A stretch of 64,000 nucleotides of DNA, taken from the NCBI GenBank assembly GCA_964632945.1, contig CAZWCX010000007.1:30088-94087 (forward strand), read 5' to 3'. Numbering within the stretch: position 1 is the first letter of the stretch; the number at the start of each line of letters is the position of its first letter. Below, piece after piece: positions 14,506 through 42,104 of the stretch. The notes under the pieces are model-generated. The model did no database searches and had not been told where the DNA came from. It saw nothing but the letters and a program-made list of their open reading frames with translations. A program made the position numbers and the translations under genes. The stretch comes from an uncultured Planctomycetia bacterium. GTDB lineage: Bacteria > Planctomycetota > MHYJ01 > WSZJ01 > CAZWCX01.

Positions 14506-14584
14506 GGGTGGGATTATCCCCTCCGCGGCGAGGCGGGGTCAAGCGAGTTCCCGGCCCGGCGCCGGCCGGCCCATTCGTTCCGCG

Positions 14585-25449: not shown

Positions 25450-25556
25450 GGTTGCTCCTTCTCTGGACGGCGGCAGCGGCATCTTAGGGCGGCGGACGGC
25501 GGGGCGTCAATCTCCGGGGGCCGGGGGCGGAACGCGCCCGGGACGGCGGGGCGCCG

Positions 25557-26690
25557 TCACGGCCGGATCCAGACCCGCTGGGCCCCCACCATGGCGGCCA
25601 CGACGACTCCGGCGAGGAAGAAGGGGGCGCCCGGAATCAGCAATCCCGTGGCCAGGGCCCCGCCGGTGATCGGCACCAAGACGTTCCCCGAACCGAGAAT
25701 CGCCTCGTGGAACCCCGTCAGCCGGCCTTCGGCCTTGGGTCCGGCGCGCAGGGAATAGTAGATCGATGAGACATAGCAGAGACCCAGGTAGGCGCCCAGG
25801 ACCGGCGTGACGAGAAAGATCCAGGGTCGGCCGGCCAGCAGCGGAAGGAGCAGCACGCAGATCAGCCCCGCACCCTGCATGACGTAGAAGAGGGAACGGT
25901 GAAGGATCCATCCGCCCCAGCGGCCGAACGCGCCGAAGGCCACGGTCTGGAACAGGTACACCAGACCGAGGAACCACCCGAAGTGGGCCGGCGCTCCGTC
26001 CATGGTCTTGATCAGTTCGGGATATTGCGAGTTGATGGTGGAGCCGATGCTCCAGGCGGCGAAGTTGGCGAGCCACGCCGCCTTCATGAACCGCGCCATG
26101 TCGGCCCGGGCCTCCGGCGGCGCTCCGTCGCTCTTCCGCTCGGCGTGGCCGGGATCGTGAGGGGTGCACAACCCGACCACCGCGGCCAGCAGGGCGGCGA
26201 CCCAGAGCGGACTCTCATAGTCGTTTCCGAACCGCAGCAGCAATTGTCCGCCGCACACGAAGCCCAACCCTTTGCCGCTGGACCAGACGATGTTGAACCA
26301 ACCCAGGTTCCGTTCCAGCGCGCGTCCGGCCGACATCCGGCCGATTCCGGCCTGGACCGCGGGCCAGAACAGCCCGGCGCCGACTCCCAGCGGCGCGCTC
26401 GCGGCCGCGATCCCCCACAAGGTCTCCGCTGCGCCCATCATGAGGCACGAGCAAGCCATGACGACGCACCCCGCCGCGGCGACGCGATAGCCGCGCGCCG
26501 TGTCGCTCAAGCCACCGGTGAGCGCGCACGTGAGGATGTAGAGAATCGCCGAAATCGCCGGCAGCAGGCCGAGGTAGAATTGGCTGGCCTGGAGGGAGAG
26601 GGCCTTGAAGGGGAGGACCGTCCACACGATGTACAGCATCAGGTCCAGCAGGAAGGACGCAATGCAGTACCGGACCATCCGCGGGTCCAC
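25557..26690 (-). CDS. MFS-family transporter.
   Basis: About twelve hydrophobic helices with MFS-like loop motifs (GGLSDTARGYR). Confidence 0.8.
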   Translation of the reverse strand: MDPRMVRYCIASFLLDLMLYIVWTVLPFKALSLQASQFYLGLLPAISAILYILTCALTGGLSDTARGYRVAAAGCVVMACSCLMMGAAETLWGIAAASAPLGVGAGLFWPAVQAGIGRMSAGRALERNLGWFNIVWSSGKGLGFVCGGQLLLRFGNDYESPLWVAALLAAVVGLCTPHDPGHAERKSDGAPPEARADMARFMKAAWLANFAAWSIGSTINSQYPELIKTMDGAPAHFGWFLGLVYLFQTVAFGAFGRWGGWILHRSLFYVMQGAGLICVLLLPLLAGRPWIFLVTPVLGAYLGLCYVSSIYYSLRAGPKAEGRLTGFHEAILGSGNVLVPITGGALATGLLIPGAPFFLAGVVVAAMVGAQRVWIRP

Positions 26691-26799
26691 GGGGCCCTCC
26701 GGGCAAACGCGGGTTGCCCCCTTTCCTATCCGGGAGAACGCTCGAAATCCAGAAATAATAGGCGGATAGGTAAATGCCCCCAGAGACCTTTGTTTTCAC

Positions 26800-26828
26800 T
26801 TGACTTCGTTGAACCTGACCGCTATTGT
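26800..26828 (+). promoter_or_regulatory. Sigma-70-like promoter (TTGACT, 17-bp spacer, TATTGT) upstream of the exonuclease gene, in a locally AT-richer stretch.
   Basis: Read directly from the sequence: ttgact tcgttgaacctgaccgc tattgt. It lies about 90 nt upstream of the ATG at 26921 and is divergent from the MFS gene. Confidence 0.45.
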
Positions 26829-26920
26829 GGCTCACGATTCGTGAGGCGACTCGTTTCCTGGACCGCACTTGCCACGGACGCGAGATGCCGGGTCGCCTGC
26901 CCAGCTCGACGAGGATTGCC

Positions 26921-27544
26921 ATGGCCAAGTCCGCCGCCCCACTTCCGGCCCCGGCGACGCCCCGGGAGTTCCAGCAACTCGACCTGTTCGCCGCCAGCAA
27001 GAAGGCGGGCGCACGCCTTCTGGCCTTCGACCTGGAGACGCAAAACTCTTTCGACGACGTTGGCGGGCGCGACAACCTGGGCGCCCTCAAGATGTCGGTC
27101 GGCATCACCTACGATCCGGACAAAGACCGCTTCGAGGTCTATCCCGAGCAGCGCGCGAGAGAGTTGGTCGATGACCTGCTCGATGCCCAGGTCGTGGTCG
27201 GCTTCAACATCCGCCGTTTCGACTACCGGGTTCTCGAACCGTATGCCGGCGGACGCGACCTGAGCAAGATCAAGACCCTCGACCTGCTGGAGAAGCTGGA
27301 GTCGGTCCTGGGCCATCGCGTCAAGCTGGACAGTTGCGCCTCCGCCACGCTCGGCACGCAGAAGAGCGGCCATGGCCTGCAGGCGATCGAGTGGTTCCGC
27401 TCGGGGCAGTTGTCGAAGGTGATCGACTACTGCAAGGACGATGTGAAGATCACGTACGAACTGTACCGCTACGGCCACGAGAAGAAGCATATCTTCATCA
27501 CGGACCGCAGCGGGGGAAAGCGCCGGGTCGAGGTCGACTGGTAA
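26921..27544 (+). CDS. DEDDy-type 3'-5' exonuclease with an RNase H-like fold.
   Basis: Exo I motif LAFDLET, Exo II motif VVGFNIRRFDYRVL and Exo III motif YCKDDVKITY. The ATG was verified at 26921. Confidence 0.7.
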   Translation: MAKSAAPLPAPATPREFQQLDLFAASKKAGARLLAFDLETQNSFDDVGGRDNLGALKMSVGITYDPDKDRFEVYPEQRARELVDDLLDAQVVVGFNIRRFDYRVLEPYAGGRDLSKIKTLDLLEKLESVLGHRVKLDSCASATLGTQKSGHGLQAIEWFRSGQLSKVIDYCKDDVKITYELYRYGHEKKHIFITDRSGGKRRVEVDW

Positions 27545-27560
27545 CGGCGCGATTCAGACT

Positions 27561-27632
27561 TGGGGGGACGGACCCAGGACCACGGTAGGGCCCTTGGGAT
27601 CAGGAGGGTGATCGACGTCCGTCCCCCTGGGG
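27561..27632 (+). terminator. Long-range inverted repeat (tggggggacggac ... gtccgtccccc) followed by TATTT, located between convergent genes.
   Basis: 11 to 13-nt complementary arms are separated by a ~43-nt loop. This is an atypical terminator geometry. Confidence 0.3.
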
Positions 27633-27710
27633 TATTTCCCCGAACCGGCGCCTGGCTCGGGTTGCATCCTGTCGGGGTGCGACCGGGAACCGGGGCGCTG
27701 CCCGCCTTCC

Positions 27711-28976
27711 CTACTTGAGGCCCTCCTCGAGCCGATCGAGCGAGACCAGCAGTTGCGCGAGTCCCTGCGCCACGCGGTCCTGTGCGACCGCGTCGCCCGC
27801 CACCAGCCCCGTGGATGCGTCCCGCAGGATGCGGACCACGTCCCGGGTCATCTGGGTCAACGGCGCGAACTCGAAGTCCGGCAGTGATTGCGACAGGCTC
27901 GCGATGCCGGCCAGCACCTTCCCTTGCCACCCCTGCAGCTGCGTCCTCACCACGGCCGCGTCCGGCTTCACCGCGCGGGACTCCTCGTACCACTTTCCGA
28001 AGTCTCGAAGCAGCTGCCGCAGGTCCTGCAGGAGGCGTCGCGCTTCGGAGGTGTCCTGCGGATGGGTGAACTGCAGGTACTCCATCCACATGAAGTAGGT
28101 GTCGTTGAACATTTCCGCGAATTCGAGAACCTTCTCCTTCGGCGGCCGCTCCGCGGCCGGCAAAGCCAGGCTGTCCCGGTAGCGCCCGACGACGCTGCGG
28201 AGATCGGACAGAAGCATGTCGATGTAGCGCCGGCCGTACCACTGCACCCAGAAGAGATCCCGCTCCGGGCGCAACTGATTGCGCGCCTGGATCTCGTGGT
28301 AGCGCGGGTCCCAATCGGACGTGAGCGCCGCGACGAACTCGTTGATCCCCGGTTCGGGACGCGCGTAGGCGGACTCGAAGAGCGCTTGGGCCTCCTGCTG
28401 CAGCCGGTGGAGGGTGATCATGTCCGTGCGCACCGAGTCGGCCGCGGTCCTGCGCTGGCGGTCGAGGTCTTCCAGGCTGCCGTGGCGGAAGGCGTGTCGA
28501 TGTTCGGGGACTTCGCCCACTCCGGCGAGGAACTTCGCCACGGCGTCGATCTGCGCCTCGAGCGGGACCCGCACGACCGCGACATAGTCGCCGGCGAACG
28601 GTTCCTCGGGAAAGAAGGCCATGCTGGCGGAGAATCGTCCGCTGCGGACGTCGGCGGTCGCCTCGTCGACCGTGACTTCCTCGATGACGAAAGGGGTGCC
28701 CTGCGCGGCGACCCGGGGCGGTGACTTGACCTGCTTGAGATAGAGCAGTTCGAGGTGCAGGGTGGCGTTGTCGGGCAGGTTGATGGAACCCTCGATCTGG
28801 AAGGTCCAGTTCTGCGCCCCCATCCTGCGCACCTCGGCCGTGACCGCGCAACGGATCGGGGATTCGCCCGCAGCCGCCGGCGGGGCCGCGGCGAAGACCA
28901 GGGCCAGGCCGCACGCCGCGGCCGCGCGCCTCAGTGCGACCCGGAACCGGGAAACGGCGGGGAGATTCATGCTCAC
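27711..28976 (-). CDS. Secreted hypothetical protein.
   Basis: Signal peptide (LALVFAAAPPAAAGE), followed by a soluble alpha/beta-like domain with no recognisable motif. Confidence 0.6.
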   Translation of the reverse strand: MSMNLPAVSRFRVALRRAAAACGLALVFAAAPPAAAGESPIRCAVTAEVRRMGAQNWTFQIEGSINLPDNATLHLELLYLKQVKSPPRVAAQGTPFVIEEVTVDEATADVRSGRFSASMAFFPEEPFAGDYVAVVRVPLEAQIDAVAKFLAGVGEVPEHRHAFRHGSLEDLDRQRRTAADSVRTDMITLHRLQQEAQALFESAYARPEPGINEFVAALTSDWDPRYHEIQARNQLRPERDLFWVQWYGRRYIDMLLSDLRSVVGRYRDSLALPAAERPPKEKVLEFAEMFNDTYFMWMEYLQFTHPQDTSEARRLLQDLRQLLRDFGKWYEESRAVKPDAAVVRTQLQGWQGKVLAGIASLSQSLPDFEFAPLTQMTRDVVRILRDASTGLVAGDAVAQDRVAQGLAQLLVSLDRLEEGLK

Positions 28977-29099
28977 CTGCGCGCGAAGGAATCGGAACTC
29001 CCCCGCATCTTACGCGCCCCCCCGCCCGGACGCAAGATCGCCGCGCGGGGGACGACTCGGACCCTTGACCTGCTTCCGGCTCTGTGATAGACGAGGCTC

Positions 29100-29543
29100 A
29101 TGCACACCAAGACTTCCATGCTGCGCAAGGAATTCGCCCTCCTGCGCGAGGCCCTGCCGGTCCGCTACAAGTTTCTGAGCAAGAAGCTGGGCGGCCCCTT
29201 GGTCCCCGAGATCTTCGAGGGGATCACCGATGACATCAACAGCGTCGGCATGCGCCTCGAAGGCGGCATTCCCGATCCGACTTGGACGATCGAAATGCTG
29301 ACGCGCGGGATCTACCTCGGCCTCAACATCCTGCTTCCCGCGAGCGAGGAGCCCATCAAGGCGCTTGGGCGCGTGATCTGGATCGAGGCCTGGGAGGAGG
29401 GGGAAGGCAAGCCGGTGGGGATGGGAGTCAAGTTCCGCGAGGTCAGCGCCGGCGACCGCCTCCGGCTCTCCACGACCATCGGCCAGATCCGCAAGGCGGC
29501 CGCCAGCACGCGCATCAACCCGTTCGACTTGAAGAACGCGTAG
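29100..29543 (+). CDS. PilZ-domain protein, a predicted c-di-GMP receptor.
   Basis: RKEFALLREALPVRYKF (the RxxxR motif) and GITDDINSVGMRL (the DxSxxG motif). Confidence 0.8.
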   Translation: MHTKTSMLRKEFALLREALPVRYKFLSKKLGGPLVPEIFEGITDDINSVGMRLEGGIPDPTWTIEMLTRGIYLGLNILLPASEEPIKALGRVIWIEAWEEGEGKPVGMGVKFREVSAGDRLRLSTTIGQIRKAAASTRINPFDLKNA

Positions 29544-29553
29544 CCCGGATGCT

Positions 29554-29582
29554 TGATGAAGCCGCGTCCGCGGCTTCATGAA
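29554..29582 (+). terminator. Hairpin immediately downstream of the PilZ stop codon.
   Basis: Inverted repeat gatgaagccgcg tc cgcggcttcat. There is no clear U-tract after it. Confidence 0.35.
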
Positions 29583-29804
29583 GAATCGGCCCGCCGGCTC
29601 CGGGTTGCGTCAGCCGCCAGGACCGCCCGGGCGCCCCGCGTGCGCCACGCGGTGTCGCACGCGGGGCGAGGCAGGCCCGCTCCGGCCGGCCTCTCAGCAC
29701 GGCCGGAGCCGGATGGTTCGCGAACCGCGAAGCGGTTCGCGATTCATCCGGGCCCGGTGGATTCCGCGGGGCGCGGGGCTGCCCCGCACGGAGCCCCCAC
29801 CCCG

Positions 29805-30782
29805 TCAGCGGGACGCGTCGACCGCCGCGCCCTCGCGCTCCGCCCGGGCGAGATCCCGGAGCAGCATGCGCGCCTCTTCCGCGGCCGGCAGCCCCGCGAA
29901 GTTTCGCGCCACTTCCTGGGCGCGCGCCTTGGCTTCCTTGCGGCTCTCCGTCCCGGCCAGCGCGCGCGCCGCGGCCAGCGCGATCATGCTCTCCTCGCCG
30001 AGTTCCGCGAGATGTCGTCGGGCCTTTTCCCGGTCGTTCCCCGCGATCAGGTCGGACTCCGCCAGTTTCTGGAAGCCCGCGATCGCCGCCGCCGTCTTGT
30101 TCTGCACCCGCAGCGCCTCCGCGTTCAGCAGCCGCTTCATTCCGTCGGCCACGGTCTTGGGCGTGATCCGGGGCGCCTGCGACGTGTAGGAGCGCCCGTC
30201 CAAGGGCACACCGGCCTTCTCTTTGACTTCGAAGAACCCGGCCGGGATCGATGTCATGTGGCTCTTGTCCCACACCACGAAGTGGAGATGTTTGAGGTCT
30301 CCCACCTTCGCGATCGTCTGACCCGCCTGGACGTGGTCCCCCCGCTTCACCAAGGCCGAGCCCGTCTGGATGTGGGAGTAGACGCTGAATTCGCCGTCCT
30401 CGTGCTGGACTTCGATGATGTTCTCCTTGTCCCCCACCGCGGTTCCGGAGTCGAACACGCGGTAGACCACCCCGTTGCGGCCGGCGCACACGAGATCTCC
30501 GGGATTCATGCCGAAGTCCCAGGCGTAGTAGTTGTGGGCGCTGATCAGATGGGTCTGCGCGCCGAAGTTCCCCTGGAAAACCGGAACGCTGACCCGGCCC
30601 GGCCAGGGGAGATGGTACTTGGCCGCTTCCGGCCACGCCCGATTGGACGCCAGATCGGCGCCCGCGCCGACAACCGGGGGAGCGGTCTTCCGACTGGTGT
30701 CCGCGTCTGCGCACGCGAGGACCATTCCTCCGGCGAAGAATGCCACCCCGACGCTGCGGAGATAGGGGTGAAACGAAAACAT
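29805..30782 (-). CDS. M23 (LytM-type) peptidase-domain lipoprotein.
   Basis: Lipobox-like signal (MVLAC). M23 motifs HNYYAWDF, VCAGRNGVV, EVQHEDGEFSVYSHI and GDLKHLHFVV. The ATG was verified at 30782. Confidence 0.8.
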   Translation of the reverse strand: MFSFHPYLRSVGVAFFAGGMVLACADADTSRKTAPPVVGAGADLASNRAWPEAAKYHLPWPGRVSVPVFQGNFGAQTHLISAHNYYAWDFGMNPGDLVCAGRNGVVYRVFDSGTAVGDKENIIEVQHEDGEFSVYSHIQTGSALVKRGDHVQAGQTIAKVGDLKHLHFVVWDKSHMTSIPAGFFEVKEKAGVPLDGRSYTSQAPRITPKTVADGMKRLLNAEALRVQNKTAAAIAGFQKLAESDLIAGNDREKARRHLAELGEESMIALAAARALAGTESRKEAKARAQEVARNFAGLPAAEEARMLLRDLARAEREGAAVDASR

Positions 30783-31056
30783 CCGGCACTCCTCCGCTCC
30801 GTGTTTCGACCCCGCGGGATTTCGCAGGGGGTTGCGAGAGGGACCATAGGCAATCCTTGTGCCTTCGCCGGTCGGGGACCGAGGAAGCGCCTCCAAAACG
30901 ATGTAACTTCTTTCCCTGAAGAGTCTTTCTCTTTCGAGGGGAAATGGCTGTGTTACGAAGGGTGACACTCCTCGGGGGGAATCCGGGCGGTCGAGTAAGA
31001 TCTCGTTTACGCCGAGCCGGAGCCTGTAAGTCGACCCTTACAGAAAAGGCAGGTCC

Positions 31057-31094
31057 GAAAACACCCGCCCCCCATTCGCGGGAATGGGGGGCGG
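31057..31094 (-). terminator. Rho-independent terminator for the minus-strand zinc-ribbon gene.
   Basis: A perfect 13-bp stem (ccgccccccattc / gaatggggggcgg), followed on the minus strand by GTGTTTTC. It lies about 25 nt downstream of the stop at 31118. Confidence 0.55.
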
Positions 31095-31117
31095 TCGGCG
31101 ACGGATGGGTGCCGCAG

Positions 31118-31885
31118 CTATTTCTTTTTAAACTTGTCGATCCGGCTGGAGCCGCGCGGCGGCTCCGGCTTCTTGGGGGCGGGGGCGGGCTTTTTTCCCG
31201 GGCCGGTCTTGGGCCGTTCCTGCAGATCTTCGAGAATCTCGAGGTCATCATCATCGCCGCCCGACTTCTTCTTCGGCTTGTCGTCGTCGAGATCGAAGTC
31301 GTCGTCGTCGCCGCCCTCGTCGAGGACCTCCACGTCATCCGCGAGGTCGTCCCCGAGATCGTCATCGCCTTCTCCGTCCTCGTCGAGCAGGTCGATGGCG
31401 TCATCGAGGTCCTTCGGCTCGTCATCGAGGACTTCCACGTCGTCTTCCTCGGCCGGCTTCTTCTTGGCCGGCGCCGCAGTCTTCTTGACCTTGATGGTGT
31501 CCTGGCCCGCGCGCTCGGCCTTCGCGGGCTTCTTCGCCGGGGGTTCCTTCCGATCCACGACCTCGTATTTGACGCCGGAGGGGACAGTCAGGCTGGTGTC
31601 GCACTTCGGGCAGCGGATGCGCGTGCCGGGGCCGAAGATCGCCACATTCAGCTTGTTCGAGCACTCGGGGCAGAAGACGATCCGACGGCCCTGCTTCTTC
31701 TCGATCTCCTGGATCTGTTCCGCGTCCAGGATGCCTTTCTTCAGCATGATGCGGTCGAGCGAGGTCACTTTCCCTTGCTTCTCGAGCTGGGCCTGCAGGC
31801 GCAGGGCCTCCTCGATTTTGTCCTTGGACGTGAAGTCCAATTCAACGGCCAGTTGGCCGAACTTGATGTCCCCCTTGCTCGGCAT
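31118..31885 (-). CDS. Protein with a GspE-N-like (T2SE_Nter) domain, a C4 zinc ribbon, and a ~140-aa poly-acidic/poly-basic disordered tail.
   Basis: N-terminus GQLAVELDFTSKDKIEEALRLQAQ...GILDAEQIQEI. Zinc ribbon CPECSNK...CPKCD. The tail is made of Asp/Glu runs such as DDVEVLDDEPKDLDD and EGDDDLGDDLADD. The gene is locally lower in GC. Confidence 0.7.
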   Translation of the reverse strand: MPSKGDIKFGQLAVELDFTSKDKIEEALRLQAQLEKQGKVTSLDRIMLKKGILDAEQIQEIEKKQGRRIVFCPECSNKLNVAIFGPGTRIRCPKCDTSLTVPSGVKYEVVDRKEPPAKKPAKAERAGQDTIKVKKTAAPAKKKPAEEDDVEVLDDEPKDLDDAIDLLDEDGEGDDDLGDDLADDVEVLDEGGDDDDFDLDDDKPKKKSGGDDDDLEILEDLQERPKTGPGKKPAPAPKKPEPPRGSSRIDKFKKK

Positions 31886-31908
31886 CGATCCTTACCTCCA
31901 CACTTCCC

Positions 31909-32337
31909 CTAGCGGTCGTGGTACTGCAATAAGTCGACGAACCCAGGCCGTGGCGGCGCAGGCTTCGGTGCGCGCGACTCCTCGGTCACAAAGTAGAACC
32001 CGCACGGGTGATCCGGCATGACCAAGTCCCGGTCGCGCAGGTCGCGCTCATCGATCGGAAACAGGCTGCAGACTTCGGGGCGGACGGGATACACGCCGCA
32101 CGCGCCGACGAATCCGTCCTTCTTGAGGAAGGCGCAATGATACATCAGGCGGCAGCAGGCCCCGGAACGGTTGCAATGGCCGCGACGCCGCGCCAGACTT
32201 CTTCGGACGTAGCCGGGTCGGAACAGGATGAGGTACTGCCGGCGCAGTTTTCCCCAGCCAAGTTGTATCCGGGCCCGGATTTTACGCGCGAGGCTCGGTT
32301 TCCCGAACCGCGGCGATGTGGCGTCCAAGGAGGGCAC
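31909..32337 (-). CDS. YkgJ-family Fe-S/zinc-chelating protein (the CxxCxxCC domain).
   Basis: CNRSGACCRL, plus the downstream cysteines of the YkgJ/UPF0153 pattern. Confidence 0.75.
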   Translation of the reverse strand: MPSLDATSPRFGKPSLARKIRARIQLGWGKLRRQYLILFRPGYVRRSLARRRGHCNRSGACCRLMYHCAFLKKDGFVGACGVYPVRPEVCSLFPIDERDLRDRDLVMPDHPCGFYFVTEESRAPKPAPPRPGFVDLLQYHDR

Positions 32338-32647
32338 CTTCCTATGACCCGATACCGATCGGATGGGCCGGAACCGCTGTCGAATCCTACTGTCGGTTCC
32401 GAAGGAGTGTCAAGAGGAAATGTGGCTTCAAACTTTGCCGCCGGGCATTGAAGGATTTGTTCAATCCGGCCTGTAAGCCGGTTGCGAGCGAATCCTGAAA
32501 TGATTGCTACATATAGTGTTACGTCATTGCTGGGAATTCCGTGGGCACGGAATGGCGCTTGCTTATCCCCCTCTTCGGTGCGGCCAACCCCGGCTCGCAG
32601 GGGGTGCACCGGAGGCCCGCACGAAAGGCATCGGGAGGCACGCAACC

Positions 32648-34168
32648 ATGAGTCATCTGCACGGCAAGCCTGGGGATCGAATCGCGGAGTACGTTCTGCT
32701 CGACAAGATCGGCGTCGGTCCGATGGGTGAGGTGTGGAAGGCCCGGTTGGCGGAGAAGCCGTTCACGGTGGTGGCGCTGAAAATTGCCGCGGACCCTGAG
32801 CGCTTCCGCGACGCGCGGTCGATGGGGACCCAGCCGTTGGGGTTGGACCATCCCGCGGTCGTGCGGACGCTGGGATTGAACATCGCGCATGACCCGCCCT
32901 ACGTGGTCATGGAGTACGTCGAAGGCCGGAGCCTGCGTCAGGTGCTGGAGAAAGGCCGGCGACTGACCCCCGGGGATGCGCTCGAAACGGCGATCCAGGT
33001 TCTCGAGGTTCTCGGCTGCGCGCACGAGCAGGGAGTGATCCACGGCAACCTCAAGCCGGAGAATCTGCTCATCGAGACGCCGCCCGGGGCGGCGGCCGGG
33101 TCGTTCCGGGTACGCGTGACCGACTTCGGACCTGGCATGGTGGCGCGAACGGGGGCGCTCCCCGCGACCGGGGACCTTTCGTACCTCTCGCCCGAGAACC
33201 GCCAGGGCGAGATGTTCGGCGTGCGATCCGACCTCTACGCGGTCGGCGCGATGCTGTTTGAGATGCTGACGGGACGGACGCCGGCGGGGGAGGAATCCCC
33301 GAGCGAGGCCGCGGAAGGCGTACCGGCGCTGCTGGATGGCGTCGTGCGCAAGGCTCTGCATGCCCGCCCCGAGGGGCGTTATGCGACCGCCCGGCAGATG
33401 CGGGAGGACGTGCTGGCGTGTCTCCGGGCGGTGCGCTCGGAGGAAGCCCGAGCGGACAAGCACGCGGCGGGAGCCTCCGGCTCCGGCAAGGCCGAAGACT
33501 CCGGTCCCCGGTTCCGCGAGCAGGTCCGTCGGGTCGTCGACGACGTCAAGGGCCGTCAGTCGGTGGACGTGGGACGCGCGTTCAATGACGCGATCGCGAT
33601 GTTGTCGCGCAGCGCCGGGACACTCCTGCTGGCGGGATTGATCTCCGGGTTGCTGTCGTTGGCTACCGCCTTCATCCTGGCGGGTCCGCTCACCGCAGGT
33701 CTCTACGCCATGGTCCTTCGCGTGCTGCGCGGCGGGACCGTCGAGGTCGGCGATGTGTTCGGCTCGTTCGACCGGTTCTGGAGCAAGATGTTCGCGTTCT
33801 ACGTGATCCTGTTCGGCATCCTTGTCGGCTTCGTGCACCTCGTCCTGCCCGGCATCGTGATTGCCGGTCTGACCATGTATGTGTTCCCGATCCTGGCCGA
33901 GCGGAAGGTCGGCTTCGGCCAGGCGTTTTCCGAGAGTGCCGGCCTGGTGTGGAAGCACGGTTTGCTGGTGCACTCGGCGCTCGTCCTCGTGGTCATCCTG
34001 ATGGACGTCTCGGCCGGGTGGGTCTTTCCGGGCGGGTTGCTGGCGAGTTGGTTGCTGAGCCCCTTCCTGTACGGGCTGATCGGGTCGGCCTACCTGCAGG
34101 TGCAGGAGCGGGAGAGCGCGGCGCCGGAGCCGAACGTTCCGGTTGCGGCCGTGCCCGCGACCGCGTAG
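32648..34168 (+). CDS. Predicted pseudokinase (Hanks-type kinase fold with a degenerate catalytic loop) fused to a C-terminal polytopic membrane domain.
   Basis: GVGPMGEVWKA, VVALKIA and DFG are present. The catalytic loop reads HGNLKPENLL instead of HRDLKPEN. The C-terminal ~200 aa form five to six hydrophobic helices. The ATG was verified at 32648. Confidence 0.75.
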   Translation: MSHLHGKPGDRIAEYVLLDKIGVGPMGEVWKARLAEKPFTVVALKIAADPERFRDARSMGTQPLGLDHPAVVRTLGLNIAHDPPYVVMEYVEGRSLRQVLEKGRRLTPGDALETAIQVLEVLGCAHEQGVIHGNLKPENLLIETPPGAAAGSFRVRVTDFGPGMVARTGALPATGDLSYLSPENRQGEMFGVRSDLYAVGAMLFEMLTGRTPAGEESPSEAAEGVPALLDGVVRKALHARPEGRYATARQMREDVLACLRAVRSEEARADKHAAGASGSGKAEDSGPRFREQVRRVVDDVKGRQSVDVGRAFNDAIAMLSRSAGTLLLAGLISGLLSLATAFILAGPLTAGLYAMVLRVLRGGTVEVGDVFGSFDRFWSKMFAFYVILFGILVGFVHLVLPGIVIAGLTMYVFPILAERKVGFGQAFSESAGLVWKHGLLVHSALVLVVILMDVSAGWVFPGGLLASWLLSPFLYGLIGSAYLQVQERESAAPEPNVPVAAVPATA

Positions 34169-34407
34169 GATCGGCATGGACCTGTGTCTGCGGATCGTCG
34201 GATGCGCGCATCCGACGATCCGTCGTCTTTCCGGGGCGGGACGATACGGGACGGGTGGGGGGCGAGCCGGGGGCGGGCGGGGGTGCCGGCGGTCCTCGGC
34301 CTGCAGGGAGGGTCGGCGGCCCGGCTGCATTTCGACCATGACGGCGTGGTCCGCTTCGGCGCGCCGGTGTGCTTGGCGTGGGCCCCCTGCCGCTCTATAC
34401 TCTGGGC

Positions 34408-35661
34408 ATGTTTACCGCTGCCCCTCCCCTCGAGCGACGCCTCCTTCTCGTCTGCCTGGTGGTCGCGGCCGTCGCCCGTCTCGGATTCGCCTTCGCGGGG
34501 CGGGAGTACGTGGAGCGGACGTCGCGGGAAACCCTTCGCGACACCGTCGGCTACAACGACCTCGCGCGTCATGCTCTCGAGCACGGCGCGTTCGCCAAGC
34601 TCCCGCCGCAGACGTTCCCCCGGCCGCCGTTGTATCCGCTATTTCTCGCCGGCGTTCGCGCCACGCTGGGGGACGGCTACGCCGCCACCCGGATCGCGCA
34701 GACCCTCCTGCAGTTGCTGACGCTGCTGCTCCTCTATCGCCTGGCGCGGGCCTGGTTCGGCCCCACGGTCGGCCTGCTCGCTTCGTACCTGTTCGCGCTC
34801 AATCCGTTCTTCGTCTTCTATACCGCCTTCGAGTTGTCCGAGACGCTGGCCGTGTTCCTGGTCGTTCTCATCGCCTCCCTGGTCCAGCACGGGTCGGCGA
34901 CGCTGCACCCCGCCTGGGCCGCGGCGCTGGGCTTCGCGCTGGCGGCCGCAACCTTGTGCCGTCCCCCGCTGGGTCAGGCCGGTCTGCTGCTGCTCGCCGG
35001 GACCGGCCTGGCGCGTCGCGCGGATCGCGCCTTCTGGGTCGCCGCGGGATCGGCGTGCCTTTCCTTCCTGGTCGCGGTGGCTCCGTGGATCTGCTTCCAC
35101 GCGCAGGCCTACGGCCGTCCCGTGATCGTCTACATGGGACTGGGACGCAGCCTGTACGAGGCGAACAACCCGACGAGCGTGACCGGCACGGGGATCATCG
35201 GCGTCGACTTTCAGCTCGATCCGGCGATCGAGGCGCTGCCGTTCGAGGAGCGCGACCGCATCTACCTGGATCGCGCCCTCGCGCACATCCGGGAGGAGCC
35301 GGGATTGTACGTCGGTCGCTGCCTGTGGCGTTTCTATCGGCTGTGGCAGCCGGTTCCCTACGCGCCGGAATTCGCGGATTCCGGCAAGATTCTCGTAGTG
35401 TTGCTGGGCGAAGGGATCTTCCTGCCGTTCTTCGTCGCCGGTCTGTGGCTGACCCGGCAGCGGTGGCGGGACCTGCTCTGGCCCTACGCGCTCGGGATCA
35501 CGCTCACCGCCGCCCACACGCTGATCGTGAGCGGCATGCGCTACCGCGTTCCGGTGATGCCGTTCGCGCTCATCCTGGCGGCGTTCGCCCTGACGACGCT
35601 GATCGCCCGGTGGAACCGGCTGCGCGCGGCGGATTCCGACCGGGGCGGGTCGGCGCGTTGA
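34408..35661 (+). CDS. GT39-like membrane glycosyltransferase (ArnT/PMT_2 family).
   Basis: A polytopic N-terminal half with a PMT_2-like arrangement (YNDLARHALEHGAF...PPLYPLFLAG). The ATG was verified at 34408. Confidence 0.65.
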   Translation: MFTAAPPLERRLLLVCLVVAAVARLGFAFAGREYVERTSRETLRDTVGYNDLARHALEHGAFAKLPPQTFPRPPLYPLFLAGVRATLGDGYAATRIAQTLLQLLTLLLLYRLARAWFGPTVGLLASYLFALNPFFVFYTAFELSETLAVFLVVLIASLVQHGSATLHPAWAAALGFALAAATLCRPPLGQAGLLLLAGTGLARRADRAFWVAAGSACLSFLVAVAPWICFHAQAYGRPVIVYMGLGRSLYEANNPTSVTGTGIIGVDFQLDPAIEALPFEERDRIYLDRALAHIREEPGLYVGRCLWRFYRLWQPVPYAPEFADSGKILVVLLGEGIFLPFFVAGLWLTRQRWRDLLWPYALGITLTAAHTLIVSGMRYRVPVMPFALILAAFALTTLIARWNRLRAADSDRGGSAR

Positions 35662-35806
35662 CGGGGGGCGGACCGGACCGATAGAGTAAAGGGAACGGAC
35701 GGCCTGGCCCGGGCCGAGGAGCGTGGACCGGAGCGGGCGGGCCACCCCTGGACCCGGCGGAGGCGGTGCGCAGGGTGTTCGCACCCTCGGCGCGCGCGTT
35801 CCTCTC

Positions 35807-38800
35807 ATGACGGAACCTCGCAATCCGGATACGTCGGCCGGATCCGCGCCGACCCCGCGTCCGGATGCCACCCTGCCCCTTCCGATGGCGGGTGAGGCGT
35901 CCGGGGGCGCGGGGGCGACGGAGCCTCGCGGGCCGCATCTCGCTCCGGAACGCGCCGACTCGGTCGGCTTCAACCTCGAGGACGAATTCCGCGGGCTCCC
36001 GCGTCACTTCGGTCGCTTCCAGATCCTCGAGGAACTCGGTCGGGGCGGGATGGGGGTCGTTTACCTGGCCTATCATCCCGAACTCCGCGTCCACTTCGCG
36101 GTCAAGGTGCTGCTCGCCGGAGACCAGCCGCCCGCCGAACTGCTGTCCCGATTCGAACGCGAGGCGCGCGCGCTCGCCCGCATCCGGCATCCCGGCTTCG
36201 TCGCCGTCCACGACCTCGGCGTTGCGGACGGAAGGGCGTTCATCGCCATGGAGTATGTCGAGGGGGTGTCGCTGGAAAGGCTGCTCGAGGATCCGGTCGG
36301 CCACGGCGTCGCCGAGGCCGGACCGGGATCGGCGCCTGCGCCGGTCGGCGGTTCCCCCGCGGGTCCGATCCGGGTTCGCTCCCGCCGCGGCGCGCGCGGC
36401 ATCGCTCCGCGCGAGGCGGCGGGAATGATTGCGGAGGTCGCAGAGTCCCTGCAGGCGGCGCATGAAGCCGGCATTCTTCATCGCGACCTGAAGCCCGCCA
36501 ACATCCTTCGTGATCGCGCCGGTCGCCTGAAGATCATGGACTTCGGGATCGCGAAGATGACGGGCGCCGGGACGCTGCAGACCCAGGCCGGAGCGGTCAT
36601 GGGAACCCCTTCGTACATGAGTCCCGAGCAGGCGTCCGGCGATGTGGATCGCATGGATGAGCGCAGCGACGTGTATCAGCTCGGAGCGGTGCTCTACGAG
36701 ATGTTGACCGGCACCGTGCCGCACGACGGGCCGAGCCCGATGGCCATCGCCATGTCGGTCCTGAAGAGCGAGCCGGCGCGTGTGCGGGTTCGGTCACCGT
36801 GGGTGCCGGTCGGCTTGGCGGCCATCGTCGAGAAGGCAATGGAGCGCGAATCCCGTCAGCGGTACAGCACCGCGCAGTCGCTGGCGCTCGACCTCCGCCG
36901 ATGGCTGGCCGGAGAGCCGACCGAAGCGCGTCCGCCGTCCTGGTGGAAGCGGCCGGTGCGCTGGCTGCATCGCCATCGGGGGCCCGCCGCGCTCGGCGGT
37001 GTCGCGCTGGTCTGTCTGATCGCGGCCGTCCTTGCCGTGGTGCGGTGGCGCGGCGCCGAGGCGCGCAGATGGAGCGACCTGGCGGACAGGGCCGCTCTCT
37101 ATCGCAAGGCGGCCATCGACCTGCGTCGCGAGGGCCTTTCGCTCGAGCGCAAGGGCCGCGACTACCTGGCGCTGCTCGGCGCCGCGGTCACCGAGGCGGA
37201 AGCGGCGGATCCGTCGCGGCCGGAGCCCCGCTGGCACCTCGGGCGCCTGCAGCGCGCGCTGATGGACTTCCGCGCGGCGCGCGCCGCGCAGGAGGAGGCC
37301 CTGCGTCGCGATCCGGAGTTCGCACCCGCGCGGTACGAACACGCGGTCCTGCTCGCCGCGGAGTACCGGGCGCGGATCGATCGCCTGCGGGATGCCTGGT
37401 GGGCGTCGGCAGGCGCGCAGCGGCCGTCCGGCCCGGATCCGGACCGCGAAGGGGGAAGCGCGATCGCTGCGGGGCCGCCTCCCTCGGCCGACCTGGCCGC
37501 GGCGGATCCGGTCGCCGGCGCACTTCGCCGGGCCTTGCGGGAGGACCTCAAGCGGCTCGAGGCGGCAACCGGCCGGTCCGGGGACGACGAAGGGGTGATC
37601 ACTTCCGCCATGCGGCGCTGTGCGCGCGGGCTCTACCTGTCCGGGGAGGCGTCCGGACCGGAGGGATGGGCGGCGTCGGCCGAAGAGCTCGAAGCCGCCC
37701 TGGCGGCGGACCCGGGACTGGAGGAGGCCGTCGAGGCCCTGGCCGCGCTGCGGCGCGACGAAGGGAAGCCCGCCGCCGCCGTGGCGGTGTACACGCGCGG
37801 CATCGAAGCCGATCGCGGCTACGCTCCCTTCCGCTCCGGCCGTGCCGGGATGTGGACCGAGGAAGGGATGCAACGGTTCGGTCGCGGCGAGGACCCGGGC
37901 GCTGCCTTCACCGCTGCGCTGGAGGACTTCGCCCAGGCACTCGAAACCGCGCCCGACGTGCCGGCGACCTGGGTCGGACGGGGCATGACGCGGCTCAACC
38001 GCGGCGTGTGGATCGTCCTGGCGGGCGGGGATCCGACGTCCGAATACGAGGCGGCGGTCGCGGACTTCGGTCAAGCTCTCGCCCGGGCGCCGGACCTCGT
38101 CGATGCGCTCAGCTGGCGCGGGAGTACGCGGTCCAATCTCGCTCGCCATCGCGAGGAGCGGGGGGTCGATCCCGGGGATGCCGTGCGGCTGGCCCGGGAG
38201 GACTTCGATCGCGCGCTGGAACTCGATCCTCGCGCATCCGGGGCGCTGCGCGGCCGGGCCAATCTGCTCAACAACATCGGCCTGGCGAAGCGGCGTCGGG
38301 GCGAAGATCCCACTCCGGACTACCAGGCGGCGATCGCGGACTACGGGCGCGCGCTGGCGCTGGATCCGCGCTCCGAGGAGGCCTGGGTTCGGCGGGGGTT
38401 GGCGCGCGTCAACCTGGGCGTGTACGTGGTCGGGCGCGGCGGGGATCCCCTGGCGTGGTACGACGAGGCGATCGCCGACTTCGGACAGGCGATCGAGCGC
38501 TTCCCGCGCGAGGCGGAGGGCTACCTGCGACGCGGGACGGCACGCTGCAACCGGGCGATCTACCGCGCCTCGCGGGGCGCGGACGCCCGGCCCGACTATG
38601 CCGCGGCCCTGTCGGATCTCGATGCCGCGGTGGAGCGCAATCCGCGCTGGGACGAGGCGTGGCGGACGCGCGGCATCCTTCGGGCCCGGCATGCGGTCGA
38701 CGCGCGACAGCAGGGGGAGGACCCGACCCCGCTGTACGAGGCGGCCATGGCCGACTTTGGTGAGGCCATCCGCGTGAATCCGGCGCAGGAGGAGAACTGG

Positions 38801-39250
38801 ACGGAACGCGGCCAGACGCGCCTGAACTGGGCCATCGGCAAGTTGGCCGCCTTCCAGTTGCCGGCAGGGCTGCTCGAGGCGGCCGAGGCCGATTTCACGG
38901 CGGCGCTCGAGCGCAATCCCGCGCGGGACATGGCCTGGCAGGGACGCGGGCACGCGCGGCGCCTCGCGGCGATGCTCGGCGCCATGCGCGGGAAAGATCC
39001 GGCGGCCGGACTCGCGGCGGCGCTCGACGATCTGGACCGGGCGGTGCGGGCAAACCCGGGAAACGCGGTCTCATTCGCCCGACGGGGGTCGTTGCACGTG
39101 GTGCTGGGCAACGACGAGAAGGCGCTTTCCGACTTCGCCTCCGCCGCGGCCCTCGATCCGGCGAGCACCGCGTCGTACGCCATGGAGATCCAGATGGCTC
39201 GCGCGCGCCTGACGCAGCGGAAGCCGGAAGAGGACCTCGGGGAAGATTGA
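35807..39250 (+). CDS. Ser/Thr protein kinase with a single transmembrane segment and an extensive C-terminal TPR array.
   Basis: GRGGMGVVY, AVKVL, HRDLKPANIL, DFGIAK and SPEQ are present. One hydrophobic helix (ALGGVALVCLIAAVLAVV) separates the kinase from the TPR array. The ATG was verified at 35807. Confidence 0.9.
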   Translation: MTEPRNPDTSAGSAPTPRPDATLPLPMAGEASGGAGATEPRGPHLAPERADSVGFNLEDEFRGLPRHFGRFQILEELGRGGMGVVYLAYHPELRVHFAVKVLLAGDQPPAELLSRFEREARALARIRHPGFVAVHDLGVADGRAFIAMEYVEGVSLERLLEDPVGHGVAEAGPGSAPAPVGGSPAGPIRVRSRRGARGIAPREAAGMIAEVAESLQAAHEAGILHRDLKPANILRDRAGRLKIMDFGIAKMTGAGTLQTQAGAVMGTPSYMSPEQASGDVDRMDERSDVYQLGAVLYEMLTGTVPHDGPSPMAIAMSVLKSEPARVRVRSPWVPVGLAAIVEKAMERESRQRYSTAQSLALDLRRWLAGEPTEARPPSWWKRPVRWLHRHRGPAALGGVALVCLIAAVLAVVRWRGAEARRWSDLADRAALYRKAAIDLRREGLSLERKGRDYLALLGAAVTEAEAADPSRPEPRWHLGRLQRALMDFRAARAAQEEALRRDPEFAPARYEHAVLLAAEYRARIDRLRDAWWASAGAQRPSGPDPDREGGSAIAAGPPPSADLAAADPVAGALRRALREDLKRLEAATGRSGDDEGVITSAMRRCARGLYLSGEASGPEGWAASAEELEAALAADPGLEEAVEALAALRRDEGKPAAAVAVYTRGIEADRGYAPFRSGRAGMWTEEGMQRFGRGEDPGAAFTAALEDFAQALETAPDVPATWVGRGMTRLNRGVWIVLAGGDPTSEYEAAVADFGQALARAPDLVDALSWRGSTRSNLARHREERGVDPGDAVRLAREDFDRALELDPRASGALRGRANLLNNIGLAKRRRGEDPTPDYQAAIADYGRALALDPRSEEAWVRRGLARVNLGVYVVGRGGDPLAWYDEAIADFGQAIERFPREAEGYLRRGTARCNRAIYRASRGADARPDYAAALSDLDAAVERNPRWDEAWRTRGILRARHAVDARQQGEDPTPLYEAAMADFGEAIRVNPAQEENWTERGQTRLNWAIGKLAAFQLPAGLLEAAEADFTAALERNPARDMAWQGRGHARRLAAMLGAMRGKDPAAGLAAALDDLDRAVRANPGNAVSFARRGSLHVVLGNDEKALSDFASAAALDPASTASYAMEIQMARARLTQRKPEEDLGED

Positions 39251-39353
39251 TCGCCGGCCGTGTTCCGCGGCCCGCGCGGGCCGATCTTCCGGTCGCGGGC
39301 GGCGGGGTGGGGCGTCCCGTCCCGCGGACGGCGTGGGCGTGACCGTTGCCGGG

Positions 39354-40694
39354 TCAACGGTCCTCGGCCGCGGTCTGCAACAGCGTTCGGATGTGGCGGG
39401 CCCGAATGGCGTAGCCCAGACCGGTTTCGCCGGCGATCTTGCTGACCGCGATGGCGATCAGTTCGCCGCGACGATTCACCACGGGGGCGCCGCTGATTCC
39501 CCCCTGGATCGTCCCGCCCAGGTGCAGGTACTGGTCCACCCGCCGCAGCGGCGCCGGCGCCACGCTGAGGGCGAGGTCCATTCCCACGAACGCGGTCGGT
39601 CGCGGAAACCCCAGGGTCACCACCGGCTCCGCACCCGGAGCCGGAACCGCCGCGTCCGGCTCCGCAGGCAGGAAGATCGGCGTGGAGTGGATGCCGGGAA
39701 CCCGAAGCAGCGCAATGTCGGCATCCGAGCGGCTCGCATGATAGGGGGAGCTCTTCTCGAGCGGCACGTCCGGGCAGGATGCGACCAACTCCACGACCGA
39801 GGTCTCAACTCCCCAGGTCGGCGAATCCGGATCGAACGTGCCTCCCGGTTCGTGGATGAAGTAGCGCACCTCGAGCAATTCGGGAAAGGGCGCCTTCTCG
39901 GCCCCGTCGTCCGGAAACTTCCAGGGTTGCACCACATGTTTGGCGGTGACGATTCCCCCCGTCGCGTCGACGTAGAACCCGGTGCCGAAGGCGTGACCGG
40001 TCTTGGTGCTGCCGGACGCGGGATCCTTGAACCGGTAGCGGGTCTGAACCAGCACGACGCTGCGCGCATACCGCCGCTGCACCTCGAGCAACGCGGAGTC
40101 CTTGAATCCTTCCGCGCGCGCGAGCGCAAACTCCCGATAGAGCGCGAACACGCCGAACCCGACTCCGCCCATCACCAGGAGCAGGGCCGTGAGGGCGGCG
40201 CCGAACCAGAACTTCAGGCGGCGGTGCGAGTGCTGAAGATCCCGGTAGAGGTTGCGGACGAAAACGGCGGTGCGTTCGATGCCTCGGGCAGGCTTGCTCG
40301 TGGACAGCGCGCGCGTGATCAACGCGCGCATCGTCTTGGGCGGTCCGTCCGCGGCGGAATCGTCCGGGGTCGGGTCCACCGGGACCGAGAAACACAGCTC
40401 GGCCGGTCGATCCCCGAACGAGATCCGGTCCCCGTTGCGTATCGGCGCGCCTTCCCCGGCCGCGAGCGCCTTGCCGTTGAGCCGCGTCGGCACGGAGCGG
40501 CCGACGGGATAGAGCGTGATCCGGTCGGCGCTTTCGACACAGATCTCGGCCTGGTTCGGTTCCGCGCGAAAACCTGCGTCTTCCGTCAAGACCAGGTCGT
40601 TTCCGGTGCCCGCGCCGAGCCGGATGACGTCGGCCTCGAATTCACCGAGGGTCCGACGGGAGCCTCCCTGGACGCTGCTGAGGACGATCCGCAT
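39354..40694 (-). CDS. FHA domain, transmembrane helix and trypsin-like (S1) serine protease fused in one protein.
   Basis: N-terminal FHA (VIRLGAGTGNDLVLTED...ITLYPVGRSVPTRLNGK...NGDRISFG). Transmembrane helix FGAALTALLLVMGGVGFGVF. Protease catalytic triad context: TAKHVV (His), DIALLRV (Asp) and GGISGAPVV (Ser). Confidence 0.85.
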   Translation of the reverse strand: MRIVLSSVQGGSRRTLGEFEADVIRLGAGTGNDLVLTEDAGFRAEPNQAEICVESADRITLYPVGRSVPTRLNGKALAAGEGAPIRNGDRISFGDRPAELCFSVPVDPTPDDSAADGPPKTMRALITRALSTSKPARGIERTAVFVRNLYRDLQHSHRRLKFWFGAALTALLLVMGGVGFGVFALYREFALARAEGFKDSALLEVQRRYARSVVLVQTRYRFKDPASGSTKTGHAFGTGFYVDATGGIVTAKHVVQPWKFPDDGAEKAPFPELLEVRYFIHEPGGTFDPDSPTWGVETSVVELVASCPDVPLEKSSPYHASRSDADIALLRVPGIHSTPIFLPAEPDAAVPAPGAEPVVTLGFPRPTAFVGMDLALSVAPAPLRRVDQYLHLGGTIQGGISGAPVVNRRGELIAIAVSKIAGETGLGYAIRARHIRTLLQTAAEDR

Positions 40695-40913
40695 TCCCTT
40701 TCCGTAGTCTCTGCCCGCCTCTCATGTCAAGCCTTCGACCCTCGCGTCGCCCGCTTGGGCCATTCGCCTTGCCGGGCACGGTTCCCTCCCGAGCCGGACT
40801 CCGTGGTTGCATCGCCGGGTGGGCATGGCGCCCTCGCTTGCTTGCGCGCCCGTGGGTCCCTCGGCATACTGGGAGATGCCGTTCCTCATCAGGCCGGGAG
40901 GTCGCCGCCCCTC

Positions 40914-42104
40914 ATGCCCTCGGAATCCGAAATCGCCTTCTGCCGCCGCCTGGTCGAGATTTGCTCGTCCTCGGGCATCTCGTTCACCCCGGCGGATGCC
41001 GACCGGATCCTCGCGCGCGTCGACGAGATCGAAAAAACGACCGGTCGACCGGTGTGCGTGGCTGAGATGCTGTTCAAGGACGAGGCCACGGATGTGCCCC
41101 CCTCGGCCATCGCCCGGGTACAGAACGAGCACAAACGCAAGATCGTCCTTTGCCCCACGTGCGGCGCGAAGAACAACGTCTTCGACCGGTCCCGCGAGAA
41201 GGCGGTGAAGTGCCCGGCGTGCCGCGAGATGTTCTATTTCTCGGACGGGCTCTTCCCGGTTGCCGATACCGTCGGCCTGCCCCGGATCGAGGGGTTTGCG
41301 ATCGGTGACCTGATCATGGAAGGCGGGCAGGGGGCCGTCTACCGCGGTACGCGAGCGGCCGATGGCGCGCCCGTGGCCATCAAGATCGTGCAGTGGGGGA
41401 CGATGCACGATCCCTCGGATCGCGACCGGTTCAAACGCGAGGCGGAACTGGCCGCGAGTCTCGATCATCCTGCCATTGTCCGAGTGCTCCACTTCCAGGC
41501 CGCACCGATGCGCGGTATCCTGGTCATGGAGTGGGCCGGGACAAGCGTACAGGATCGGGTCGAAACGGATGGGCCCGATCCGCCGCCGCGCGCGCTGGCC
41601 CTCGGGCGGGCGCTGTTCTCCGGCTTGGCCTACGCGCACGCCCGGGAGATCGTCCACCGCGACATCAAGCCCGCCAACATCATGGTGCGCGAGGACGGTG
41701 CGGTGAAAATCGTCGACCTCGGACTGGCCAAGACCATGGCGTGCACGGGCGTCAGCGGCATTACGCTTTCCGGGGTCGGAATGGGCACACCCGCGTACAT
41801 GCCTCCCGAGCAACTCACGCGCTTTCGCATTCTGGATGCGCGAGCGGATCTGTACGGAGCGGGGGCCACGCTCTACTTCCTGCTCACGGGTCATGCGCCG
41901 TACGAGGGCAAGGGCCCCGCAGAGGTGCAGCGCCGGCTCGCAGAGGGACCGCCGAAGTCGATTCGGTCGTGGCAACCCGCGTTGCCTCCGGCCATCGTTG
42001 CGCTGATCGAGCGCCTGATGGCCCGCGAGCCGGAGCGCCGTCCGGCCGACGCGGGTTCGGTCATCGTCGAAATCGACCGTATCCTGGCGGATTCGGCGCG
42101 CTGA
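40914..42104 (+). CDS. Ser/Thr protein kinase with an N-terminal zinc-ribbon domain. It is divergent from the FHA-protease gene.
   Basis: CPTCGAK...CPACREMF, then GGQGAVYRG, VAIKIV, HRDIKPANIMV, DLGLAK and PPEQ. The ATG is in-frame inside the long track ORF 39333..42104 and was verified at 40914-40916. Confidence 0.85.
   Translation: MPSESEIAFCRRLVEICSSSGISFTPADADRILARVDEIEKTTGRPVCVAEMLFKDEATDVPPSAIARVQNEHKRKIVLCPTCGAKNNVFDRSREKAVKCPACREMFYFSDGLFPVADTVGLPRIEGFAIGDLIMEGGQGAVYRGTRAADGAPVAIKIVQWGTMHDPSDRDRFKREAELAASLDHPAIVRVLHFQAAPMRGILVMEWAGTSVQDRVETDGPDPPPRALALGRALFSGLAYAHAREIVHRDIKPANIMVREDGAVKIVDLGLAKTMACTGVSGITLSGVGMGTPAYMPPEQLTRFRILDARADLYGAGATLYFLLTGHAPYEGKGPAEVQRRLAEGPPKSIRSWQPALPPAIVALIERLMAREPERRPADAGSVIVEIDRILADSAR

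Follow-up and report, generated by a model that had tools for sequence, protein, structure and literature searches.

What can a protein kinase domain that has lost its catalytic base do at a membrane? The question is raised by a gene for a protein of 506 amino acids (aa) on a 64,000-nucleotide (nt) stretch of contig CAZWCX010000007.1 (positions 30,088 to 94,087) from an uncultured Planctomycetia bacterium; this whole stretch is hereafter called the window. The protein joins an N-terminal Hanks-type kinase domain, in which the HRD motif reads HGN, to a polytopic C-terminal membrane domain. The answer that we favour, at a probability of about 0.6, is that it is a maintained, membrane-anchored pseudokinase, whose inactive fold would act as a switch, docking platform or phospho-acceptor and would be coupled to a CysZ/YciC-like module for input or localisation. 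The start codon of the gene is the ATG at 32648, with a GGGAGG ribosome-binding site 9 nt upstream, while the mechanically called open reading frame (ORF) opens at TTG 32504; the database protein P0001 is identical to the 506-aa product.

Regarding the kinase domain, its membership in the Hanks-type superfamily is apparent over both lobes, from the Pfam Pkinase profile (PF00069; E 1.4e-28, 100.5 bits against a cutoff of 31.7, aa 15-220) and from solved kinases, of which the Mycobacterium tuberculosis PknB structures are the best relatives (phmmer against the PDB; E 6.6e-34, aa 13-261). In the phmmer comparison, GVIHGNLKPENLLI pairs gap-free with GIIHRDVKPANILI of PknB, so that HGN falls on the HRD position; the column is the same when the protein is aligned by MAFFT with six canonical kinases or with the nearest HGD kinases, and the three independent alignments thus agree. 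An earlier sequence-only reading of this DNA had claimed that HGN stands in for HRD, and the claim holds, the motif aligning with HRD in PknB and in eight further kinases. The glycine loop, the VAIK lysine and DFG, which the same reading had listed as retained, are all present: the protein keeps GVGPMG as its glycine loop, the β3 lysine (in VALK), the catalytic-loop asparagine N139, DFG and SPE. The feature that had been missed is the loss of the αC glutamate. Met59 aligns with E59 of PknB, with the glutamate of 'REA' in the six canonical kinases, and with that of 'RQEG' in the nearest HGD kinases; with methionine at this position, the Lys–Glu salt bridge would be lost; the lysine K45 itself does not vary among the five orthologues or in any of the aligned kinases. 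Of the residues on which the competence of a Hanks kinase is judged, the HRD aspartate is therefore replaced (Asn134) and the pair of Lys45 with the αC glutamate is broken (Met59), whereas the DFG aspartate and the catalytic-loop asparagine, both serving metal binding, are in place (D159 and N139).

These losses are shared by the whole clade to which the protein belongs. A search of 5.8 billion protein clusters returned, besides the window protein, only four full-length orthologues, with identities of 55-65% by BLASTP and of 55-69% in the multiple alignment. H132, G133, N134 and M59 are invariant in the five sequences, which come from five independent assemblies; their agreement rejects a sequencing or assembly error as the origin of HGN. 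Among the 120 best kinase matches, 'RD' is found at the catalytic position in 102, and 'GN' only in these five. DFG is kept in the window protein and in three orthologues; in the remaining one, P0005, found in groundwater-type metagenomes, DFG has become GFG and 'LKPEN' has become 'LEPAS', with the catalytic-loop lysine and asparagine gone and the whole protein kept, as is expected if catalysis is dispensable. The glycine loop is degenerate in P0002 (GASTLG) and P0004 (GDGPLS).

Averaged over all pairs of the five orthologues, identity is 64% for the kinase domain, 56% for the membrane domain, 60% for the juxtamembrane helix, and 25% for the linker, where P0002 has an 18-residue insertion. The kinase domain thus shows no less conservation than the other parts of the protein, which indicates a maintained pseudokinase and not decay; a decaying pseudogene or domain is rejected on this conservation and on the intact reading frame. 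The catalytically degenerate kinase proposed from the sequence alone is thus borne out, the change from HRD to HGN being at the correct position, conserved and under purifying selection. Outside the clade, the nearest relatives of the kinase domain are P0006 and P0008 (41% identity), HGD non-RD kinases with an αC glutamate; since they still carry both the aspartate and the glutamate, the losses are derived, and the clade would descend from a non-RD kinase that lost Asp and Glu afterwards. The clade is tiny, with five sequence clusters and an uncultured host. The malate dehydrogenase encoded in the window has its nearest matches in proteins named after Planctomycetota metagenome-assembled genomes (64-68% identity; 9 of the 12 named matches), and this single marker gene points to a probable planctomycete source. 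A scan of species-representative genomes with the orthologue alignment gave only an unrelated Byssovorax kinase, and a scan of metagenomes only the already known P0005 contigs and one unrelated fragment.

In the bacterial kinome atlas, a pseudokinase is defined operationally by the lack of at least one of the VAIK lysine, the HRD aspartate and the DFG aspartate (bioRxiv 10.1101/2025.01.12.632604). The clade falls under this definition, the HRD aspartate being gone in all five orthologues while the fold is maintained. Seven bacterial pseudokinase families have been described (ActPs1-3, GLW, CP1, DYD and DLHK), and the VAIK lysine is substituted in all of them, partially in CP1 (34%) and DYD (60%); in addition, ActPs3 carries MurJ, CP1 has COG3899 and no transmembrane (TM) region, and DLHK has no TM region either. 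Membership in CP1, ActPs or DLHK was rejected on these published features, since Lys45 is unchanged throughout the clade, the protein has a TM domain, and neither COG3899 nor MurJ occurs. The clade fits none of the seven families, from which it is set apart by their published features and not by their profiles. Its motif pattern and its architecture are new with respect to them, while the kind of protein, a bacterial membrane pseudokinase, is already known.

Compared with PknB (PDB 1MRU/3F69), homology extends across the catalytic domain, and the glycine loop, the β3 lysine, the catalytic-loop asparagine, DFG, SPE and the subdomain XI arginine are shared, as is the location of the kinase N-terminal to the membrane part. 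The window protein differs in having HGN for HRD, Met for the αC glutamate, a shorter activation segment, and a polytopic domain where the C-terminal part of PknB consists of a single TM helix and extracellular PASTA. Precedents for membrane pseudokinases that work non-catalytically are mycobacterial MviN and EssB/YukC (PMC12599244). MviN (Rv3910, ActPs3) also has a dead Hanks-type domain and a polytopic, transporter-like domain on one polypeptide, and it works in a network of Ser/Thr kinase and FHA proteins (PMC12599244); however, ActPs3 has lost all three catalytic motifs (VALT, no HRD, no DFG), whereas the window protein keeps Lys and DFG, and the actinobacterial ActPs3 domain follows a 14-TM MurJ flippase, whereas in the planctomycete protein a six-TM, CysZ-like module stands at the C-terminus. 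EssB/YukC, from type VIIb secretion, shares the N-terminal cytoplasmic pseudokinase and the membrane anchor, and has a scaffold role; the single TM helix of EssB, the degradation of all its motifs and its type VII secretion system operon are not found in the window protein. HER3/ErbB3 (HRN), from a eukaryotic receptor tyrosine kinase family, likewise has Asn for the catalytic Asp and keeps Lys and DFG; its architecture and context are unrelated to those of the window protein.

The membrane domain contains three long hydrophobic stretches (aa 322-360, 377-418 and 431-466) and is modelled as three helical hairpins, in accord with the polytopic domain of five to six helices first proposed. From the hydrophobic stretches and the positively charged loops, both termini and the long loops are implied to be cytoplasmic, with almost nothing outside. 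When searched alone, the C-terminal 211 aa had no Pfam match at E<=0.01, and in NCBIfam they matched weakly YciC (E 0.0027, 17.4 bits against a cutoff of 227) and MusI. A profile of the five C-terminal regions, searched against 1.84 billion representative proteins, retrieved a family of 1602 proteins at E<=1e-3, or 241 at E<=1e-10; the match begins at 'LDLGRAF', in the second half of the juxtamembrane helix. The members are mostly stand-alone proteins of ~200 aa, named 'hypothetical' and with no precomputed Pfam domain. Among 85 aligned members, 28 matched UPF0259, 27 GPDPase_memb, 18 DUF975 and 3 EI24/CysZ, with a best E of ~1e-8 for the first three models; all the members checked individually were below the gathering score, and the window domain likewise fails the gathering thresholds of UPF0259/YciC, GPDPase_memb and DUF975. 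A literature search on UPF0259, DUF975 and GPDPase_memb found nothing functional.

Regarding the fold, the top Foldseek match of the module is CysZ (probability 0.96, TM-score 0.51), with a non-significant E-value and a sequence identity to CysZ of 10-14%; CTL1, PNS1, CysZ and SLC25 have been reported as one structural neighbourhood in a 2026 paper (PMC13160678). On the model, the module is predicted to be a six-helix, three-hairpin domain with a CysZ/CTL-like fold, within a CysZ/YciC-like superfamily. Its description as having no recognisable family is therefore right at curated thresholds, but it belongs to a large superfamily, repeatedly fused to signalling domains.

These fusions were counted among the best 150 of the 1602 family matches. 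Six carry a canonical N-terminal kinase (P0133, P0156, P0164, P0187, P0203 and P0255; Pkinase E 1e-42 to 1e-56), with HRD, DFG/DYG and the αC glutamate all intact, and two more kinase fusions are N-terminally truncated. The other partners are FHA (P0250), 4Fe-4S (P0217), a C-terminal PP2C/SpoIIE phosphatase (P0236), a prokaryotic RING/zinc finger in two proteins (P0181 and P0188), and an N-terminal HAAS domain in five (P0148, P0158, P0190, P0218 and P0221); HAAS has been described as the link between multi-TM sensor domains, 'uncharacterized 6TM' ones included, and PadR regulators (PMC11237479). The canonical kinase fusions have the same succession of kinase, linker, 'LDLGRAF' helix and six-TM module as the window protein, to which they are 30-33% identical overall, and differ from it in their intact catalytic motifs. 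In a rough neighbour-joining tree of the module, the kinase-fused members are scattered over several branches, and the HGD kinases P0006 and P0008, the closest relatives of the window kinase domain, are without the module; it follows that the fusion of the module to kinases probably arose repeatedly. Such a pattern is usual for modules that serve signalling as input or anchor, and it speaks against a transporter with no part in signalling. One of the canonical fusions, P0187 (loci L008/L009/L010), occurs in the same groundwater samples as P0005 and may be a paralogue from the same genome; its gene is followed by that of a 242-aa protein of unknown family and then by a RIO1-type kinase. Zinc-ribbon N-termini are present on the module kinases P0187 and P0255, as well as on a kinase encoded at ~40800-42104 in the window.

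A broader proposal can be made, tentatively and with the odds rather against it: the ~200-aa CysZ/YciC-like module might be a widespread, unrecognised intramembrane input domain, swapped among Ser/Thr kinases, PP2C, FHA and HAAS-PadR proteins, and this planctomycete clade might be its first case with a dedicated pseudokinase as output, the sensor signalling via an inactive fold to other kinases.

In the mechanism proposed for the window protein, a cytoplasmic PknB-like domain would be tethered, via the flexible linker and the juxtamembrane helix, to the six-helix module with almost no periplasmic loops. The kinase domain probably folds and may bind a nucleotide, and it would perform little or no phosphotransfer. 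The membrane module would be the input or localisation part, sensing the state of lipids or of the envelope, or a small solute, in or at the membrane, and the pseudokinase would act non-catalytically, as conformational switch, docking platform, allosteric partner or phospho-acceptor for active Hanks kinases and FHA proteins, in a manner similar to the pseudokinase domain of MviN or to EssB/YukC. Candidate partners are abundant, the window encoding three canonical Ser/Thr kinases and an FHA–trypsin-like protease. The gene of the latter (FHA domain, E 1.1e-5, plus trypsin-like peptidase; 39354-40694, minus strand) is divergent from that of the zinc-ribbon Ser/Thr kinase (~40800-42104, plus strand); the 923-aa ORF called at 39333-42104 overlaps the FHA–protease gene on the opposite strand, so the true start of the kinase gene probably lies much further on.

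The features of the locus are collected in Table 1. The genes between 31909 and 39250 were judged real by their ORFs, Pfam matches and GC content at third codon positions (GC3), and both the gene list and the coordinates first given for the locus are correct.

Table 1. Features of the pseudokinase locus, in window positions (residue numbers are those of the 506-aa protein).
Feature	Positions	Strand	Details	Basis
Pseudokinase–6TM gene	32648..34168	+	506 aa; stop codon included	ORF and ATG start
Kinase domain, Hanks-type, PknB-like	32669..33433	+	aa 8-262; catalytically degenerate	Pfam, PknB structures
β3 (VAIK) lysine	32780..32782	+	K45; kept	Alignments
Residue at αC glutamate position	32822..32824	+	Met59	Alignments
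HGN replacing HRD	33041..33049	+	Codons CAC GGC AAC; Gly133 at the Arg position, Asn134 at the catalytic Asp position	
DFG motif	33122..33130	+	D159-F160-G161; kept	Orthologue alignment
Low-complexity Ala/Gly/Ser linker	33434..33520	+	aa 263-291; length variable	
Juxtamembrane helix	33521..33601	+	aa 292-318; VVDDVKGRQSVDxGRAFNDA; conserved	
Polytopic membrane domain	33602..34123	+	aa 319-492; three helical hairpins; uncurated YciC-like family	
Divergent intergenic region	32338..32647	n/a	310 nt; relatively AT-rich	
Cys-rich YkgJ/CxxCxxCC-like gene	31909..32337	-	142 aa	
GT-C (PMT_2-type) glycosyltransferase gene	34369..35661	+	430 aa	
TPR Ser/Thr kinase gene	35723..39250	+		

The upstream neighbour had been read as a YkgJ Fe-S protein. 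A relation to the CxxCxxCC type stands at superfamily level, but the match is below the Pfam threshold (CxxCxxCC, E 0.0032; 18.6 bits, cutoff 23) and its first motif reads CxxSxxCC; all four YkgJ-like orthologues match the same region of the profile, again below threshold (E 0.00057-0.0098), seven cysteines are invariant among them, and a sequence search of the PDB with the protein gave no match. In the three other loci with upstream sequence (L001 and its duplicates, L004 and L005), the YkgJ-like gene also lies divergently upstream of the pseudokinase, together with the gene of a zinc-ribbon/acidic protein of ~250 aa; the two genes overlap by 11 nt in these loci, which suggests that they are probably co-translated. 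In the window, the zinc-ribbon gene (31118-31885, minus strand) encodes a 255-aa protein that is helical in its N-terminal region, contains a double zinc ribbon and ends in a long tail rich in acidic residues and lysine; over the first 133 aa its identity to the L001 orthologue reaches 83%, and no other gene of the block described next is as conserved.

At protein level, L001 and the window share a collinear block (window 22831-34165, ~11 kb), which ends exactly at the stop of the pseudokinase and contains the genes for an M1 peptidase-HEAT protein, an RNase H-like protein, a 412-aa protein, PilZ, M23, the zinc-ribbon protein, the YkgJ-like protein and the pseudokinase. The association with YkgJ is thus conserved, yet within so narrow a clade it is indistinguishable from inherited gene order. 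The divergent spacer is indeed relatively AT-rich, as had been noticed, with a GC content of 0.51-0.60 against ~0.69 overall in the window. It contains a sigma-70-like TTGACA-18-TAGGAT (32413-32384, minus strand) for the YkgJ-like operon, with a -35 element that four loci share (GTGTCAAGAGGAAATG on the plus strand), and a second island conserved in four loci, CGGAACGGCGCTTGCTT (32549-32565), ~85 nt upstream of the pseudokinase start, which could be a promoter or an operator. No Rfam match was found in 31000-36500, and hence no known riboswitch or leader in the spacer. Elsewhere in the window, three long consecutive ORFs on the minus strand (51491-62452; ~1535, 1573 and 773 aa, the first two overlapping as called) have a coding-like GC3 of 0.87-0.90 and match no Pfam family at E<=0.001.

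On the downstream side, the sequence-only reading had seen a PMT/ArnT-like, GT39-like enzyme and a possible link to envelope glycosylation, with the pseudokinase as a scaffold acting together with this enzyme and the tetratricopeptide repeat (TPR) kinase that follows. The enzyme does belong to the GT-C glycosyltransferase superfamily (PMT_2, PF13231; E 2.6e-10; 41.2 bits, cutoff 26.1), but the support ends at this level, short of GT39: the searches returned no match to the PMT model itself and no PDB relative by sequence. The scaffold explanation draws on the three genes lying on the same strand in the window, and on a PMT_2 gene located 1.3 kb downstream of the L001 orthologue, which matches the window glycosyltransferase locally (37% over 111 aa). 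Against it, synteny stops at the pseudokinase stop codon, and the GT-C gene is not a constant neighbour: each of the three readable loci has a different gene next downstream, namely the GT-C gene in the window, a convergent short-chain dehydrogenase/reductase in L001, where it separates the pseudokinase from the PMT_2 gene, and a convergent acyl-CoA dehydrogenase in L006, the locus of the closest orthologue. In L001, the gene of the TPR kinase has the inverse orientation, and the kinase is closer to a distant window copy (11332-14538, minus strand; 42% identity) than to the adjacent one (35723-39250, plus strand; 38%), so the latter is not its positional orthologue. A gap of 200 nt separates the pseudokinase and GT-C genes in the window, and the canonical kinases fused to the module have unrelated neighbours, with no GT-C or YkgJ. 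An operon of pseudokinase and glycosyltransferase is rejected on the synteny of the window, L001 and L006, and a glycosylation scaffold is very improbable.

Two further explanations concern the protein itself, and both build on points that weigh against a non-catalytic switch. The loss of the catalytic aspartate to asparagine is not always inactivating, HER3 (HRN) being weakly active, and with Lys, Asn and the DFG aspartate still present in four of the five orthologues, catalysis could be residual or altered; moreover, the full-length model, made from five sequences, is unusable (predicted local distance difference test, pLDDT, 44), and the geometry of the active site is not readable from it. 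The protein might then be a weak or atypical enzyme, which would bind ATP-Mg via K45, N139 and D159 and catalyse, under control of the module, either slow phosphorylation as in HER3 or another nucleotide-dependent reaction as in SelO or SidJ. The invariant β3 lysine and the intact glycine loop of the window protein agree with this, and pseudokinases with new enzymatic activities are known, SidJ and SelO among them (review PMC12599244). Conversely, the αC glutamate that positions the lysine is lost in all five sequences, the glycine loop is degenerate in P0002 and P0004, and P0005 is still under selection without the DFG aspartate and the catalytic-loop lysine and asparagine; besides, the domain is plainly PknB-like, with no sequence similarity to the SelO and SidJ lineages, and an enzyme of this sort appears unlikely.

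Alternatively, the module might be the effector: a CysZ-like permease or channel, gated by a pseudokinase domain that is itself controlled by a nucleotide or by phosphorylation, after the model of MviN, whose polytopic flippase is under the control of a pseudokinase. Among solved structures, those nearest in fold to the module are the permease CysZ and the putative transporters CTL1 and PNS1, which leave room for such a transport role and count against an input function; on the other hand, the resemblance to CysZ is low in identity and not significant by Foldseek E-value, it has been argued that even the CTL proteins are perhaps not transporters (PMC13160678), and the fusions to HAAS, a domain described as reading out multi-TM sensor domains, suit a sensor better. 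A gated permease is accordingly rather improbable. The neighbourhood is a further weak point for the membrane-anchored pseudokinase that we favour, as it gives no specific clue to a partner, the conserved upstream genes sitting in the long collinear block.

In conclusion, bacterial pseudokinases are known from surveys, and very few have a known function. The clade described here is unlike the seven families that lose the lysine, for it retains Lys and DFG, its losses being confined to the catalytic base, the HRD arginine and the αC glutamate, and it has a polytopic module attached in place of the usual single helix. The module is the more general lead, as it represents a large family without a Pfam model, with a predicted CysZ/CTL fold and with kinase, phosphatase, FHA and HAAS domains as recurrent partners; should it prove to be a membrane sensor, it would offer a handle on the signals of many orphan bacterial Ser/Thr kinases.

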